Assembly (NCBI GenBank): GCA_937900435.1
Contig: CALCEG010000010.1
Coordinates: 1-43,223 of the forward strand
From: an uncultured Alphaproteobacteria bacterium
GTDB lineage: Bacteria > Pseudomonadota > Alphaproteobacteria > Rs-D84
DNA length: 43,223 bases
Direction of reading: 5' to 3'
The position numbers were made by a program, and so were the translations under genes. Shown here piece by piece: positions 26,817-42,955 of this stretch. The notes below the pieces were generated by a model, which was not told the DNA's origin, made no database searches, and worked only from the letters and a program-made list of their open reading frames with translations. Every line of letters begins with the position of its first letter. Position 1 is the stretch's first letter.

Positions 26817-26844
26817 TTGACTATTCTAATAAATAGTATATAAT
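26817..26844 (+). promoter_or_regulatory. Sigma-70-type promoter of tRNA-fMet
   Basis: TTGACT, a 16-nt spacer, then TATAAT. The -10 element ends 13 nt before the tRNA 5' end. Confidence 0.55.
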
Positions 26845-26857
26845 GTATACACCTTAT

Positions 26858-26926
<69 letters not shown>

Positions 26927-26934
<8 letters not shown>

Positions 26935-27004
26935 AAGTTTCAAAACTTGCCCATTGGGGCAAGTTTTTGTTTGTTTTACAATACCTACAAAAAGTTCGAA
27001 AGTT
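26927..27004 (+). repeat. 78-bp direct repeat, left copy (last 8 nt of tRNA-fMet, its terminator, and 34 more nt)
   Basis: Exact match to 27752-27829 (offset 825 bp). Identity continues with 1 mismatch to 27010/27835. Confidence 0.9.
26944..26970 (+). terminator. Intrinsic terminator of tRNA-fMet
   Basis: CTTGCCC-attg-GGGCAAG followed by TTTTTGTTTG. Confidence 0.7.
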
Positions 27005-27009
27005 GAAAT

Positions 27010-27040
27010 TTAAAAAAGTGGCAAAAAATCGCCACTTTCG
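27010..27040 (-). terminator. Intrinsic terminator of the GNAT gene
   Basis: Minus strand: AAAGUGGC-gauuuuuu-GCCACUUU followed by UUUAAAUUU. Confidence 0.5.
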
Positions 27041-27049
27041 AACTGATTT

Positions 27050-27616
27050 TTATTTTTTATATTCGCTTGCTAATTTAGAAAACACAGCAAAATCCTCCCA
27101 TTCCTGCATCTGTTTATTAAAATTTGCATCTCTTTCTACACCATCTTTCTTTAAACCTAATTTTTTTAGTGTTCCACAACTTGCTTTATTTTTTACATTA
27201 GCCTTTGCAGACAATTTATGAAAACCCATTTGGAAAAAGTATGCTTCTAATGCCTTTATACCTTCGGTTGCAAAACCATTATGTGCAAACTTTTTACAAA
27301 CCCATGCACCAAATTCTCCACATTCGCGTTTCCAAGAGATACTGTGAACACTCACCATACCAACAAATTCATTAGTATCTTTTTTAAACATAGCATACGA
27401 TACAGCTTTACCGTTTTCGATATTTTGTTTACCAGAAACCAAAAAATCATATTCTTCTTCCGGCTTTTTTACTAACGCAAATGGCATAAATTTAAAAAAT
27501 TCACGATTGTTTGATATTTCGTTATATAATAATTTTGCAAAATCAAAACTAGGTTCAATTGTTTTTAGATTTAATCTTTTAGTTGAAATAAGTTTCTTGA
27601 ATTTTTGCTGTTTCAT
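27050..27616 (-). CDS. GNAT-family N-acetyltransferase (RimJ/RimL-like)
   Basis: 188-aa ORF. TKRLNLKTIEPSFDFAKLLY N-terminus, VGMVSVHSISWKRECGEFGAWVCKKFAHNGFATEG acetyl-CoA-binding core, and GFHKLSAKANVKNKASCGTLKKLGLKKDG. Confidence 0.85.
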   Translation of the reverse strand: MKQQKFKKLISTKRLNLKTIEPSFDFAKLLYNEISNNREFFKFMPFALVKKPEEEYDFLVSGKQNIENGKAVSYAMFKKDTNEFVGMVSVHSISWKRECGEFGAWVCKKFAHNGFATEGIKALEAYFFQMGFHKLSAKANVKNKASCGTLKKLGLKKDGVERDANFNKQMQEWEDFAVFSKLASEYKK

Positions 27617-27751
27617 ATAAAACCTCTCTGTTTATATAAAAGTATATCATACACAATGAATTAAATCAAATTTACTAACTTCAACATACCTTTCATAATA
27701 TCAATCTCTTACCCTATTTCCACCAATTCGGTTCGAGAACCACACACACTG

Positions 27752-27829
27752 CGCAACCAAAGTTTCAAAACTTGCCCATTGGGGCAAGTTTTTGTTTGTT
27801 TTACAATACCTACAAAAAGTTCGAAAGTT
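27752..27829 (+). repeat. 78-bp direct repeat, right copy
   Basis: Exact match to 26927-27004. It is preceded by GGTTCGAGAACC...CTGCGCAACCA, a degenerate tRNA 3'-half-like stretch. Confidence 0.9.
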
Positions 27830-27956
27830 AAAATTAAAAAAAATTGCTATTACAGAAATGTTAAATTCACAAGAATCCGCCTTAAACAAAAAAAGCCTTG
27901 AACGATAATATCAATACTCATCCACAACAGTGTATTTTTGCGTAACCACAACAATC

Positions 27957-27985
27957 TTGACAAAATATATTATTTGTATTATTAT
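27957..27985 (+). promoter_or_regulatory. Candidate promoter of ORF 28007
   Basis: TTGACA, a 17-nt spacer, then TATTAT. AAAGGA lies 7 nt before the ATG. Confidence 0.4.
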
Positions 27986-28006
27986 TAATAAAACAAAGGA
28001 TTTAAT

Positions 28007-28441
28007 ATGCAATCGATTAATTTCAAAGACGCAATGATAATTTGCGCAACATTAAATAACATTGGTCACCTTAAAGTATACAGAAACACCCCCTACCAAG
28101 ATACATTAAGGTACACCCCCAGAAAAGGTTATGCAACCGATGAGTCGAATTCATTGGCGTGTGATTGCCTGCGTAAGCTTGGTTTTACAAACGTTCAAAT
28201 TAATCCTGAAAAAAGCGTATATCATTGTATTTCTGCAACCATTGAATGTGAATACGATTTATCAACCAAAACAATAAAGCACGCCAACCCAAACGACCTT
28301 CGCGCATTACTCTACATAATAAATTACATCAAGACCTGGTGTGTTGTTTCCTTGCCATCAGAATCTGGTTCCGACCCCATACCATTTAACAAATACCTAT
28401 CAAATATAAAGAATTATTTATCACAACAAAAACAAAGATGA
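28007..28441 (+). CDS. Hypothetical 144-aa protein
   Basis: ORF with promoter-like, SD and terminator signals. No recognisable motif and no signal peptide. Confidence 0.55.
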   Translation: MQSINFKDAMIICATLNNIGHLKVYRNTPYQDTLRYTPRKGYATDESNSLACDCLRKLGFTNVQINPEKSVYHCISATIECEYDLSTKTIKHANPNDLRALLYIINYIKTWCVVSLPSESGSDPIPFNKYLSNIKNYLSQQKQR

Positions 28442-28445
28442 CCAC

Positions 28446-28470
28446 ACCGCCAAAATCGGCGGTATTTTTT
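28446..28470 (+). terminator. Intrinsic terminator of ORF 28007
   Basis: ACCGCC-aaaatc-GGCGGT followed by ATTTTTT. Confidence 0.6.
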
Positions 28471-28543
28471 CACAACTTATTTTTTTATTCAAAACACAAT
28501 AAATATAGTTATAATTATAAAAACCATACCAAAAGGTACCGCT

Positions 28544-28747
28544 ATGAATTCAGATTTTGAAAACAAATGGGAACCAACCACTGAATACACTCACATGGTT
28601 GAACGCGAAGAACAATTTTCAAATTACAAACTTGAACGGGCAACTAATAAAGAACTTGAAATGTTAAACAGCCCATCCCCCATATTTGATGCTCTTTTCA
28701 AATTTATTCAAATATTCAAAAAAAACAATAAACAGAAATCCCATTAA
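28544..28747 (+). CDS. Hypothetical 67-aa acidic protein
   Basis: ORF with AAAAGG upstream, lying first in the apparent 28544-30299 operon. No motif recognised. Confidence 0.4.
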   Translation: MNSDFENKWEPTTEYTHMVEREEQFSNYKLERATNKELEMLNSPSPIFDALFKFIQIFKKNNKQKSH

Positions 28748-28776
28748 AAATAATAACAACTACAAAAAGATAAAAA

Positions 28777-29727
28777 ATGTCAATAAAACCTACACCAAAA
28801 AAAATATCAAACTTTGTTGAAAAATATATAAAGCTGTTTCAATCAGACCCAACTATCAGTTCAGAATATATCTATAAAGTCCCCGCATCAGAACTGAATA
28901 ATCTGGGTGATTTTTTACGCGATGACGACTGTCGTGTTTATCTGTGTTTCTATCCATTATCCGACCAAGAATACGACAAAAAAAACGACGAATTTATGTT
29001 TGCTGAATACCACTATCCCAAACGAATGACATTAAAAGACGGCAAACTAAAACTTGAATTAAATGTTGTAATACCTGCTAAAAATAGATATGTTGACAAA
29101 GCAAAAATTGTTGAAATTATTGCCCACGAACTTGACCACGCATACGAAACATGGCATAAATTACAACCAACTACCAATACAGACAATAAATTATCCTATT
29201 TTGCCAAATTATTTAAAATCGCAAAGAAAAGAAAAACAATAAAAAAACAATTAAAAGATTACGATAATATACTACCACAACAAGATAGTACTTTTCACGA
29301 TGATTTTCGTTGGGTTGCATATTTTTGCGTTGACCTTGAAATCAGTGCTAATCTTGCTGGCATCAATGCATTTTTACAAGAAAACAATAACGATAAAACA
29401 AAACTAGAACTAAGTCGTGGTTATCAAACATTTCAAATTATAAAAGAAAAATTTGAAAAGATAAAAACAAATGCAACAAATTCCGACTGGGCTTGGGCAC
29501 AAAGAAACGTTTCATATATTGGTACAAACAAACAAGAAAATGTATCTGATTTCAAGAAACGATTTATAGAATATTATGAACATAAATTTAATGAATTTGA
29601 AAACAACTTAAAAAAAATCACTACAAAAACAAACGATAAACATAATACGCTTAAATCAGCTAGTGATAAACTAACACAAAAAATTATTCTAAAAACAAAA
29701 CAATCGAACAAGAAAGATTCTTTATGA
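28777..29727 (+). CDS. Hypothetical cytoplasmic-type protein with an HExxH motif (putative zincin)
   Basis: 316-aa ORF with no signal peptide. IIAHELDHAYETWH, with HELDH at nt 29125-29139. The stop overlaps the next start (ATGA). Confidence 0.6.
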   Translation: MSIKPTPKKISNFVEKYIKLFQSDPTISSEYIYKVPASELNNLGDFLRDDDCRVYLCFYPLSDQEYDKKNDEFMFAEYHYPKRMTLKDGKLKLELNVVIPAKNRYVDKAKIVEIIAHELDHAYETWHKLQPTTNTDNKLSYFAKLFKIAKKRKTIKKQLKDYDNILPQQDSTFHDDFRWVAYFCVDLEISANLAGINAFLQENNNDKTKLELSRGYQTFQIIKEKFEKIKTNATNSDWAWAQRNVSYIGTNKQENVSDFKKRFIEYYEHKFNEFENNLKKITTKTNDKHNTLKSASDKLTQKIILKTKQSNKKDSL

Positions 29728-30299
29728 AAAAACAAATAATTTTATCATTAGTATTTTTAACACATAACGCTTTTGCATATACAACCGGTATTCAACAATA
29801 CATTGGCATTGATGCCGGATTAAATATCGGGGATTACACACAAAAAACAGACCTGGACGACACATATTATTCTGCAACTGTCAACGCTGGCATCCGCGTA
29901 AACCGCAATTTTGGGGCAGAATTATTTTTCACACACTCTTCGACAAACAACCTTGAATACATATATGATTTAAACGCAATAAACCACGAAGTTTATTATA
30001 TGGTGTTTGGTTTTGATATTTTTGCATATTATCCCCTGTCCAAGAACGCGGACTTTTTCACAACTTTTGGTGTTGCGAGCCACAAGGTTTACAACAAATA
30101 CGAATACATAACCGAAATAAATGAAACTAATACAACAAATTCAGACAACGATATCAGCACCCGAATTGGTATTGGTTTTTTATACACTTTTCCTGGCAAT
30201 CATGTATCTGCAGTAATACGATATAATTACACACCAATTAATAATGATATATTTAAAACAATGTCAAAATTTTCATTTGGTTTCAGATACACATTCTAA
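29724..30299 (+). CDS. Small outer-membrane beta-barrel protein (OmpW/OMP_b-brl-like)
   Basis: 191-aa ORF. Signal peptide MKKQIILSLVFLTHNAFA, alternating aromatic beta-strand pattern, and a C-terminal FGFRYTF. Confidence 0.7.
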   Translation: MKKQIILSLVFLTHNAFAYTTGIQQYIGIDAGLNIGDYTQKTDLDDTYYSATVNAGIRVNRNFGAELFFTHSSTNNLEYIYDLNAINHEVYYMVFGFDIFAYYPLSKNADFFTTFGVASHKVYNKYEYITEINETNTTNSDNDISTRIGIGFLYTFPGNHVSAVIRYNYTPINNDIFKTMSKFSFGFRYTF

Positions 30300-41901: not shown

Positions 41902-42955
41902 ATAACGTTAAAAGTAATTTTAATTTTTCTGAATATTTTTTTATTTCTGTATCAATGTTCACTATTTCATCACGAACTGTTTCGTCCCCAGATAATAATT
42001 TATTAGTCAATTCTTGTTTTGTTGCATTCAGTTTTTCCAGATATCTTTGCAGTTTTAGCGAAACAATATATTTTTCAGCGGCATCAAAACTTAAATTTAA
42101 ATCATTGGTCGTTGTGTCAAAATCCACCCCCAACGTCCCCAAGAAATCCAGATATCTTTCCGCCAGTTCTGGGAAAGTATTAACAATATACACCAGTGTA
42201 TTTTTTGTTATGCCATCAATATCAGGTAATTTCACATCGATTTTTTTTGTTTCTTTTTTCCAACTTTGCCAGTTTTGGAATTTTCGTTTATTGTATTCTT
42301 GTTTATAGTGTTTTTTTAATTCGTTGTCTGTGATTTTATCTGTTATATTGTCCAAGAATTTTTCAGCCTGTGTACGTCCACCTGGCGTTGCGGTAATAAA
42401 GTTTTTGTTTGCTAAATCCCACAAGAAGTCAACCAACGGCACCGCGTTGTCGATAATTTTTCGCATTGCATCGCCCCCGGAATTTTTCAGTATTTCATCA
42501 GGGTCTTTACCGCCACTAACGAACGCGAATTTCACATCAGACGTATCGCGCAAGAATTGCATAACAATATCACATGCGCGCGCTGCTGCCTTTTGTCCTG
42601 CGCCATCACCATCAAAACAAAAAGTTATATTTCTGTTTGATTTACATAACAGTGCAATATGGTCTTCGGTCAATGCGGTCCCCAGTGGTGCGACAGTTTC
42701 TGGAAAACCGTTTAGTTGCATTTTTATTGCGTCAATTTGTCCTTCGACAATAATGCTGCGATTTGCACGATGAATACTTTCGCGCGCAAAGTTCAACCCG
42801 AACACAGTTTTTCGTTTATGAAAAATATCAGTATCAGATGTATTTATATACTTTGGTTCACTGCCATCCAAACTGCGTCCTGAAAAAGCAACGATTTGAT
42901 TGTGTGCATTAAATATAGGAAACATTAATTTATCCCGGAAAAAATCATATACGAG
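41900..42955 (-). pseudogene. dnaG: DNA primase DnaG, 5'-truncated (TOPRIM and C-terminal domains only; zinc finger and N-terminal RNAP subdomain are missing)
   Basis: The first ATG is at 42925. DnaG-like sequence YDFFRDKLMFPIFNAHNQIVAFSGRSL...KYINTSDTDIFHK...VEGQIDAI...FDGDGAGQKAA starts at about 42950. In-frame sequence above that is unrelated and hits a stop at 43010-43012. E. coli DnaG has about 200 residues before this block. Confidence 0.75.

Follow-up and report, generated by a model that had tools for sequence, protein, structure and literature searches.

The 43,223-nucleotide (nt) stretch of DNA analysed here (the window) carries, directly behind its initiator tRNA gene (tRNA-fMet), a single acetyltransferase gene enclosed by two copies of a long direct repeat. 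We suggest that this 825-bp unit is probably a mobile single-gene cassette, which is docked at the CAACCA 3' end of tRNA-fMet, has no recombinase of its own and is moved by recombination at two points. The unit belongs to a previously undescribed family of integrase-less single-gene cassettes that is specific for Candidatus Enterousia. Members of Enterousia are uncultured, have genomes of about 0.9 Mb and are frequent in animal guts. The window is contig C10 of a metagenome bin (1.17 Mb in 187 contigs, with an estimated contamination of 6.4%). Its relatives, identified by way of the adjacent DUF374 protein, are filed under Candidatus Enterousia or Alphaproteobacteria and stem from the gut of goats, sheep, yaks, deer, chickens and humans; all genomes compared are metagenome bins. 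In the labels used below, C denotes contigs of the window's own genome, L contigs or loci of relatives and G genomes of relatives. Candidatus Enterousia has been placed in the genome-reduced order Rs-D84 (PMC12306168).

A repeat search recovered the direct repeat at 26927-27022 and 27752-27847 (96 nt, 96% identity), with the copies 825 bp apart. An earlier note on this DNA had described the first 78 nt as identical, which the search confirms (26927-27004 = 27752-27829), and an exact repeat of 78 nt cannot occur by chance in 43 kb. The match does resume after one mismatch (27005/27830), as the note had it, but for 5 nt and not for 6. Its start in the last 8 nt of the initiator tRNA (CGCAACCA, ARAGORN) and the terminator hairpin inside each copy (26942-26967 and 27767-27792) were likewise read correctly. 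The tRNA gene itself, tRNA-Met(CAT), begins with CGCGGGG and ends with CCCCGCA-A-CCA, and the resulting C1/A72 mismatch, typical of initiator tRNAs, indicates that it is probably the initiator. The features of the unit and its anchor are as follows.

26817-26844, plus strand: promoter-like site of tRNA-fMet, TTGACT-16-TATAAT (11 of 12 consensus positions).
26858-26934, plus strand: tRNA-Met(CAT), ending in CGCAACCA, anchor and integration site (ARAGORN).
26927-27022, plus strand: left repeat copy, composed of the tail CGCAACCA, terminator, spacer and left pal arm (repeat search; the junction is also present in L190).
26942-26977, plus strand: intrinsic-terminator hairpin (26942-26967) with T-run, the T module, left copy.
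26993-27044, no strand: pal, with 11-bp inverted arms AGTTCGAAAGT (26993-27003) and ACTTTCGAACT (27034-27044), starting 59 nt past the CCA end.
27050-27616, minus strand: GNAT N-acetyltransferase of 188 amino acids (aa), Acetyltransf_3 family (Pfam).
27641-27669, minus strand: promoter-like site of the GNAT gene, TTGATT-17-TATACT with an upstream TG, kept among the GNAT cassettes of L061, L064 and L078.
27685-27759, plus strand: preR, a 75-nt cassette-end element ending in the tail CGCAACCA (27752-27759; alignment A1, model R1).
27752-27847, plus strand: right repeat copy, in which the tail is followed by the terminator (27767-27792), the spacer and, at 27818-27828, the left pal arm, with no right arm.

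These pieces are not peculiar to the window. The parts of the repeat, together with the 60-75 nt that precede its right copy, recur in the same order and 0.5-0.8 kb apart at many non-syntenic loci of the relatives. A common anatomy is apparent at these loci: a tail of the form C(A/G/C)CAACCA is followed by a variable terminator hairpin (T), a semi-conserved spacer of about 25 nt, the inverted repeat pal, one gene and finally preR, which ends in the next tail. Fifteen preR copies with unrelated cargo align without gaps (alignment A1; 80% mean column identity), and CxCAACCA is invariant among them. R1, a sequence-only model of preR, matches the window at 27687-27759 (64 bits, E = 1e-17) and finds 76 of the 121 Enterousia genomes (63%), with up to 9 copies per genome that typically lie on the same strand at intervals of 0.6-1.2 kb. 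At the level of the order, all 82 positive genomes fall in one genus of 23. The segment in front of the right copy, which had been taken for a degenerate T-arm/acceptor half of a tRNA, is instead this conserved element of nearly two thirds of the genus genomes. The idea that preR is a structured RNA was dropped, as its fold is not significant (z = -0.5) and no consistent covariation was seen by eye in A1; it has more the look of a site for protein binding than of an RNA.

The cassettes are found in arrays anchored at tRNA genes. Of the 20 array stretches retrieved, 13 start with a tRNA-Gln gene (CTG or TTG) and one starts with tRNA-Pro; the remaining six have no tRNA gene, and several of these are cut off by a contig end. 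Only CAACCA is common to the tRNAs used and to most cassette ends, and within the window's genome this end is possessed only by tRNA-fMet and two tRNA-Gln genes. The tails of 69 preR copies are mostly CACAACCA (39 copies), followed by CGCAACCA (9) and CCCAACCA (6). The geometry is also conserved: of the 23 modules with a pal, 16 have its start exactly 59 nt past the tail, as do both copies of the window, and its outer 11-bp arms are constant and 40-41 nt apart from start to start. In 53 non-redundant cassettes (median body 639 bp), the cargo gene is on the plus strand in 33 and on the minus strand in 20, with the polarity of the modules fixed. A strong inner hairpin in pal accompanies only minus-strand cargo and is therefore the terminator of that gene, so that a conserved inner structure was rejected. 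In the window, the pal loop accordingly contains the GNAT terminator hairpin (27014-27039, minus strand), and the bulged hairpin has z = -4.4; the left T module, folded as single-stranded DNA, reaches -12.7 kcal/mol (z = -4.3).

Cargo was assigned for 32 distinct cassettes, among which GNAT genes are the commonest (4). The others include genes for methyltransferase, HIT, NUDIX, histidine phosphatase, Fic, ART-PolyVal, HD, M54-like peptidase and radical SAM proteins, an ABC exporter and small lipoproteins. A TTCGAA box was also observed at several places of the system, namely in the T-loop of tRNA-Gln (GGTTCGAAT; TTCAAA in tRNA-fMet), in preR (GGTTCGCGAAT; GGTTCGAGAAC in the window) and in both pal arms. 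Sites of this type lie at 26909-26920, 27732-27743, 26993-27003 and 27034-27044 of the window, and the preR form is mostly TTCGCGAA and here TTCGAGAA. From this recurrence, the box may be a common recognition or protein-binding element.

The 188-aa open reading frame is the only credible gene between the repeat copies. It matches Acetyltransf_3 (PF13302) over model positions 1-138 of 138 (E = 8e-20, 72.4 bits against a gathering threshold of 25.4), and its nearest solved relatives are YdaF (1nsl) and MccE (3r95), the microcin-C immunity enzyme. The cargo is thus predicted to be a functional N-acetyltransferase of the Acetyltransf_3 family that has RimL, RimJ and MccE among its relatives. It had been described earlier as a RimJ/RimL-like GNAT with its own terminator; a single GNAT gene with a terminator (27039-27014) is indeed present, but the likeness to RimL and RimJ is distant. 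Assignment to either ribosomal-protein N-acetyltransferase equivalog was rejected, with NCBIfam scores of 33 bits for RimL (cut-off 184) and 22 bits for RimJ (cut-off 190). The exact protein of the window was not on record in our look-up, and close homologues were compared instead. Between the window and L061 there are 44 synonymous and 4 non-synonymous codon differences (35 to 3 and 26 to 3 for other alleles), which shows purifying selection on the gene. At the DNA level, differences of 5.8-9.2% separate the GNAT alleles from that of the window, with 92.6-94.2% identity in the comparison with the backbone, which is 97-99% identical; the alleles thus predate the divergence of the strain backbone, in line with cargo that is exchanged.

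Two further GNAT genes were noticed in related settings. The start of contig C2 in the window's own genome (C2:1-760) codes for a second Acetyltransf_3-like GNAT followed by a preR copy (66 bits) that ends in CACAACCA; it is another cassette of the family, with neither terminator nor pal after its preR. In L065 (Logan SRR29040560), a GNAT with 89% identity is found among cassettes whose preR-like ends finish in CCCTGCCA and not in CACAACCA, on a contig that also codes for a deaminase, a NERD protein and a phage-lysozyme/Mu-F protein. The tail CCCTGCCA may be tuned to a different tRNA in that organism.

Direct comparisons of alleles show that the tRNA-fMet site is occupied in some lineages and vacant in others. 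In the empty allele of G019, the tRNA ending in CGCAACCA continues straight into GTTAAATAAAAAATGCACCC. In the filled allele of L086, the same CGCAACCA is followed by a T module, pal, a 261-aa gene and a preR ending in CACAACCA, which then joins GTTAAATAAAAAATGCACCC; this cassette is 1.0 kb long and CAACCA is all that is repeated. Polymorphism is equally clear within the window's species. Contigs from other samples with an identical DUF374 protein and a backbone of 97-99% identity display four types of allele, all of which diverge immediately past CGCAACCA. A GNAT allele with the same hairpin, another spacer and a different right boundary is present in L078/L187, L189 and L194; L190 also has a GNAT cassette, and in L185 the GNAT unit has been pushed away from the tRNA by a further cassette. 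L079/L080 possess a cassette for a 208-aa M54-like peptidase with another terminator, followed by preR...CACAACCA, the right-copy module of the window and the gene o144. In L186/L188/L191, the site is filled by an integrase island with a Bro-N protein and a 393-aa integrase. L081 starts with the terminator that opens such islands in G004 and G021 and breaks off after 16 nt, and by this similarity its allele is probably an integrase island too.

The GNAT cassette is also found at a second tRNA. With 98% protein identity it lies directly behind tRNA-Gln(CTG) in L061/L062, between flanks of another species, and truncated or embedded GNAT copies are present in the tRNA-fMet regions of two more species (L066 and L071). 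A simple local tandem duplication is ruled out by this second genomic site and by the insertion polymorphism. The earlier note had called for a comparison of occupancy among related genomes, and this comparison reveals insertion polymorphism exactly past CGCAACCA among conspecific contigs. Its proposal of a small integrase-less cassette at a tRNA 3' end is supported by that polymorphism, by the second tRNA and by the integrase islands found at the same tRNA in relatives; the site-specific recombination it invoked, and the excision of a 0.8-kb circle, are steps that we infer. No DNA similar to the cassette was found in plasmid and phage collections.

The origin of the two repeat copies can be traced through the conspecific contigs. 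In L186/L188/L191, a 37-nt copy of the true tRNA-fMet 3' end takes the place of preR and is followed by AAGTTTCAAAACTTGCCCATTGGGGCAAG...ACAACACCTACAAAAAGTTCGAAAGTTGAAATTTAAAAAAATTGCTATTACAG and then by o144, and in L079/L080 the order is preR with the peptidase-cassette tail, repeat and o144. Since the right-copy module stands behind a true tRNA-fMet 3' copy in the former contigs, the right copy represents the native tRNA-fMet flank of the species. The left copy is of the same native type up to the A-run in the centre of pal, where strain comparisons place a switch (about 27012-27017) to the GNAT-type inner hairpin and right arm GTGGCAAAAAATCGCCACTTTCGAACT; this part is common to L061 and present in diverged forms in L064 and L078. 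Because of the switch within pal, the GNAT-specific block is confined to about 27005-27686. The 78-nt repeat is not an integration (att-type) core and is instead a copy of the native flank module.

Could the double module have been created by the assembly, as a strain chimera joined through the shared terminator module? The bin is split into 187 contigs and its contamination is put at 6.4%, public samples contain several variants of the strain side by side, contig L077 is broken within the repeat, and both copies occur together in no other contig. However, the two junctions are seen independently: the left one (tRNA, repeat and GNAT) with a single base difference in the separate assembly L190 (run ERR11636065), and the right context in L079/L080 and L186/L188/L191. 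The pal switch shares only about 9 nt with other alleles, which we take as too little for a jump in a k-mer graph, the repeat (78-96 nt) is shorter than usual reads, and a like duplication is present in two other species. We thus consider an artefact extremely improbable.

The duplicated stretch is limited by the CCA tail on one side and by the centre of pal on the other. Most of the 52 pairs of neighbouring modules are only 50-80% alike, and one further pair reaches 94%. Beside tRNA-Gln in G119, a duplication of 76 nt (100% identity) extends from CAACCA to the left pal arm, and in G132, also beside tRNA-Gln, one of about 240 nt (99%) has the same limits with a mini-cassette embedded in it. 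Since these limits recur in arrays of other species, we infer two recombination points in each boundary module, one at the CCA tail and the other at the pal centre. Six conspecific contigs (L078/L187, L185, L189, L190, L192 and L194) provide a different arrangement, where preR...CTGCGCAA is joined straight to GGCGTATATTTTTATTTTCTATCACTTTCAAACT, the right half of pal, and GGCGTATATTTTTATTTTCTATCACTTTCAAACT with 283 nt of other sequence replaces window 27757-27935 between GNAT and o144. This boundary lacks the tail-to-pal stretch.

Duplications of this kind could also be generated in a transposition-like manner, if staggered cuts at the CCA end of the tRNA and at the pal centre were followed by gap filling, so that a long target-site duplication arises in a single step, as for the CRISPR repeat at spacer acquisition. 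The CAACCA-to-left-pal duplication does flank the tRNA-nearest, youngest cassette in three independent arrays. Nevertheless, most cassettes are flanked by unlike modules, the duplicated length varies from 76 to about 240 nt, and the L086/G019 insertion was made without any such duplication; no transposase or Cas1-like gene was found, although only the tyrosine, serine and Y1 families were searched. Such an origin is accordingly very unlikely in our opinion. A miniature inverted-repeat transposable element or an insertion sequence was also rejected, as the ends of the unit, the T module and preR, do not form an inverted pair and the duplications (6, 76-78 or about 240 nt) are not of fixed size.

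For the cassettes themselves, we propose the following course of events. They stack head to tail behind CAACCA-ended tRNAs, mainly tRNA-Gln and sometimes tRNA-fMet, and each newcomer would shift the older cassettes away from the tRNA. Entry would take place by conservative recombination in or beside CAACCA, with a recombinase supplied in trans. Entry at this point would account for the filled and empty pairs, the conspecific alleles, the second tRNA, the choice of tRNAs and the tails. The pal centre would serve as the second exchange point. Excision at one point and re-insertion at the other, in a population with the native site, would then yield the order tRNA, S / GNAT, preR, tail, S / resident that is seen in the window, where S is the tail-to-left-pal stretch, and loss of S would be the converse product. 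A circle of about 0.8 kb, or a tandem, is predicted to have a junction in which preR...CGCAACCA, the terminator and the left pal arm lead into GTGGCAAAAAATCGCC, and the predicted empty site, deduced from the attR of an integrase island, would run from tRNA-fMet through the terminator and left pal arm into AAAATTGCTATTACAG.

Several observations weigh against this proposal. The two-copy arrangement is seen in this assembly alone, and none of the other assemblies compared has both copies together. All six other contigs with a GNAT-to-o144 junction have a different right boundary, and the predicted empty-site and resident junctions had no match in scans of Joint Genome Institute (JGI) metagenomes. 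Neither a circular form nor a contig with the site directly empty came to light. The 78-nt identity could also have come from gene conversion, as L078 already shares the first 34 nt past the tail and only its spacer differs, and the likeness of preR copies, which follows species more than cargo, fits homologous exchange equally well. No recombinase could be assigned to the system either. Candidate enzymes in the window's own genome are the two Xer-type proteins (C99 and C73), an integrase of 406 aa (C132), a serine recombinase of 535 aa (C49), a small resolvase (C35) and a protein of 197 aa (C90). There is no recombinase in or beside the arrays, and the genes upstream of tRNA-Gln vary, with none conserved. 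PF00589 finds only the two Xer-type tyrosine recombinases in the array-bearing genomes G132 and G085. PF00239 is present in 11 of 12 genomes, never adjoins an array and is absent from G132, while the Y1 transposase (PF01797) is absent from 11 of the 12 genomes searched, with one match in G044. The window contig itself has no tyrosine or serine recombinase (no PF00589 or PF00239 match), in agreement with the earlier statement that an integrase is not present. No dif-like sequence (up to 8 mismatches) was detected in the modules, with E. coli dif as the reference, which may not be that of the host. The islands with a 392-aa integrase at tRNA-fMet lack preR and repeat 15, 20 or 37 nt of the tRNA 3' end, and judged by these features they are not obviously cognate to the cassettes.

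The main rival to the cassette reading is an explanation with no dedicated system at all. The modules would then be conserved intergenic sequence, cassettes would be swapped by homologous recombination after DNA uptake or conjugation, and the 78 nt would be a gene-conversion tract between neighbouring paralogous modules. Terminator, spacer and pal are indeed combined differently in the window, L078, L064, L061 and L190, and the GNAT region of L078 is itself recombinant. Only 7 spacer conversions are needed to turn the L078-type left module into that of the window, preR copies resemble those of species-mates more than they track cargo, and the searches assigned no recombinase to the system. Homologous recombination leaves unexplained, however, why first insertions occur exactly past CAACCA with 6 nt repeated (L086 against G019), and how the move between tRNA-Gln and tRNA-fMet took place, where only CAACCA and short generic motifs are shared. 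It likewise gives no account of the restriction of arrays to CAACCA-ended tRNAs, nor of the fixed 59-nt geometry and a module polarity that is independent of the gene strand, and in G132 the duplicated part includes a mini-cassette of 180 nt whose left side offers no more than 6 nt of homology. On balance we regard this explanation as unlikely, and favour mobile cassettes moved by two-point recombination.

The tRNA-fMet locus is framed by genes that are syntenic throughout the genus. The order is lipoprotein, LpxC, LpxK and DUF374 (minus strand), tRNA-fMet, a variable region, and then an outer-membrane protein (OMP), o205, VirB4 and VirB3. To the right of the cassette, the window contains the following features.

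27848-29727, plus strand: resident downstream block, with the o144 promoter (27957-27985), o144 (28007-28441), o67 (28544-28747) and o316 (28777-29727).
29724-30299, plus strand: gene for the OMP beta-barrel, with which the conserved backbone resumes right of the variable region (synteny comparison).

The o144-o67-o316 block, which separates the tRNA site from the conserved OMP/o205/VirB4 backbone, is variable cargo of older date. In another species (L086), o67 and o316 (window 28544-29727) are 99% and 98% identical to those of the window, whereas the backbone protein DUF374 is only 89% identical; this AT-rich islet beside the GNAT cassette has therefore been exchanged recently between species.

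Among 80 species, the variable region from tRNA-fMet to the OMP gene is empty in four (114-133 bp) and exceeds 9.7 kb at the other extreme. Where the site is empty, the OMP gene follows tRNA-fMet at a distance of 114-125 bp. About 14 of the species have a tyrosine integrase of 392 aa behind tRNA-fMet, with copies of the tRNA 3' end (11 to 37 nt) as its bounds, and about 35 have gene-less inserts (150-230 bp) whose last 20 nt repeat the tRNA end. This range of occupancy, together with the islands and inserts, shows that the tRNA-fMet 3' end is a genuine integration hot spot. The gene-less inserts (L021, L026-L030, L036 and L040) are of two sequence types, start with their own terminator, end in the tRNA 3' copy AAATCCATTCCCCGCAACCA and are interleaved with gene cassettes; a search of the tRNA-linked inserts of relatives with Rfam scored only tRNAs. 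The integrase islands (L186, L188 and L191; L042/G004; L054/G021) code for a 392/393-aa tyrosine integrase with an Arm-DNA-binding domain and for Bro-N and HNH proteins, and their bounds are 37-nt and 15-20-nt tRNA 3' copies, sometimes two in tandem.

A few other sites of the genome resemble parts of the system. On C143 (1432-1505), tRNA-Gln(CTG) is followed by a terminator 91% identical to that of tRNA-fMet and then directly by the alanyl-tRNA synthetase gene, so that this genome has an empty tRNA-Gln site; one of the whole-genome ARAGORN runs failed to report this tRNA, whereas others did report it. The 16-mer GAACGCGAATTTCACA, which weakly resembles the preR core, has two oppositely oriented copies in the window (15742-15757, minus strand; 42521-42536, plus strand) and may be part of another repeat family. 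The sequence AAATCCATTACCCGCACCCA at 13033-13052 agrees with the 3' 20-mer of tRNA-fMet in 18 of its 20 nt; it falls within open reading frames that overlap each other and are not established genes, and was set aside as probably due to chance.

Elements that target tRNA genes and accrete in tandem have been described as tycheposons in Prochlorococcus (bioRxiv 10.1101/2020.12.28.424599) and as ssrA-specific islands in Dehalococcoides (PMC3146451). The papers on Enterousia available to us contain no mention of mobile elements, and searches for similar arrays of tRNA-anchored cassettes gave nothing closer. As in the tycheposons and ssrA islands, insertion is at the 3' end of a tRNA or tmRNA gene with partial copies of that end as boundaries, newcomers displace older elements, occupancy differs between strains of one species, and the hosts are genome-reduced with few other mobile elements. 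Genuine integrase islands of this type are also found at the tRNA-fMet of Enterousia. As is usual for tRNA islands, the tRNA-fMet of the window is intact, with its last 8 nt repeated, and the site displays both presence/absence polymorphism (four allele types) and tandem accretion (L185). The units differ from such islands, however, in lacking a tyrosine or serine recombinase of their own, GNAT being the only gene in the window's unit. In general the Enterousia units are small (0.4-2.5 kb) and single-gene, have no integrase, replication or regulatory module, and repeat only 6-8 nt of the tRNA as opposed to 15-48 nt. Every unit also has the same 75-nt end element and an inverted repeat at fixed distance, and the arrays resemble integron arrays more than decayed islands.

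The cis-mobilizable elements (CIMEs) of Streptococcus and other integrase-less satellites are flanked by att sites, have no recombination genes, are thought to be moved in trans and accrete in tandem (PMC5704250). Enterousia cassettes are similarly flanked by boundary sites (CAACCA tails and conserved modules) and lack recombination and transfer genes. CIMEs, however, are deletion derivatives of integrative and conjugative or integrative and mobilizable elements that keep the att sites of a known integrase, and no cognate integrase is known here. The cassettes, unlike these remnants, form a large and uniform single-gene family, and their mobilisation in trans is our own suggestion. The gene-less mini-cassettes behind tRNA-fMet in relatives resemble the gene cassettes in being small and without integrase, with a terminator first and a tRNA 3' copy last. 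They differ in having no gene and in ending with an exact 19-20-nt copy of the host tRNA, from T-loop to CCA, whereas gene cassettes end in a generic preR...CACAACCA and carry pal.

Integron arrays consist of many small, mostly single-gene cassettes with palindromic attC sites, and chromosomal integrons have species-specific attC. The Enterousia arrays are likewise made of many small, mostly single-gene units, each with an imperfect palindrome. As in sedentary chromosomal integrons, the boundary elements of the Enterousia cassettes track host lineage more than cargo, and among the mixed small accessory enzymes of the cargo GNAT genes are prominent (4 of 32 distinct cassettes here). There are nevertheless clear differences. 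No IntI gene, attI or common promoter is present and the anchor is a tRNA 3' end; the cassettes are equipped with promoters and terminators of their own, and their genes are found on both strands (33 to 20); pal has 11-bp arms with TTCGAA about 29 nt apart, and the RYYYAAC/GTTRRRY boxes of integron attC are not visible; and the second conserved element, preR with its CCA tail, has no integron counterpart. We put forward, tentatively, that Enterousia possesses a cassette-array system that does the integron's job with other parts, namely a CAACCA tRNA dock, a composite two-crossover site of about 185 nt and a recombinase whose gene lies elsewhere (perhaps the housekeeping Xer pair, or else an enzyme not yet described), by which single genes would be shuffled among strains and between tRNA-Gln and tRNA-fMet, with the 78-nt repeat as its footprint. 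The unit provides a compact and ordered way to swap single accessory genes at tRNA genes without an integrase for each element, and how reduced genomes keep up a flexible gene pool is a question on which the Enterousia locus bears. Two-point recombination, if true, would add new recombination sites and point to an unknown or moonlighting recombinase, and the arrays would then represent a second, independent solution to the problem that integrons solve.

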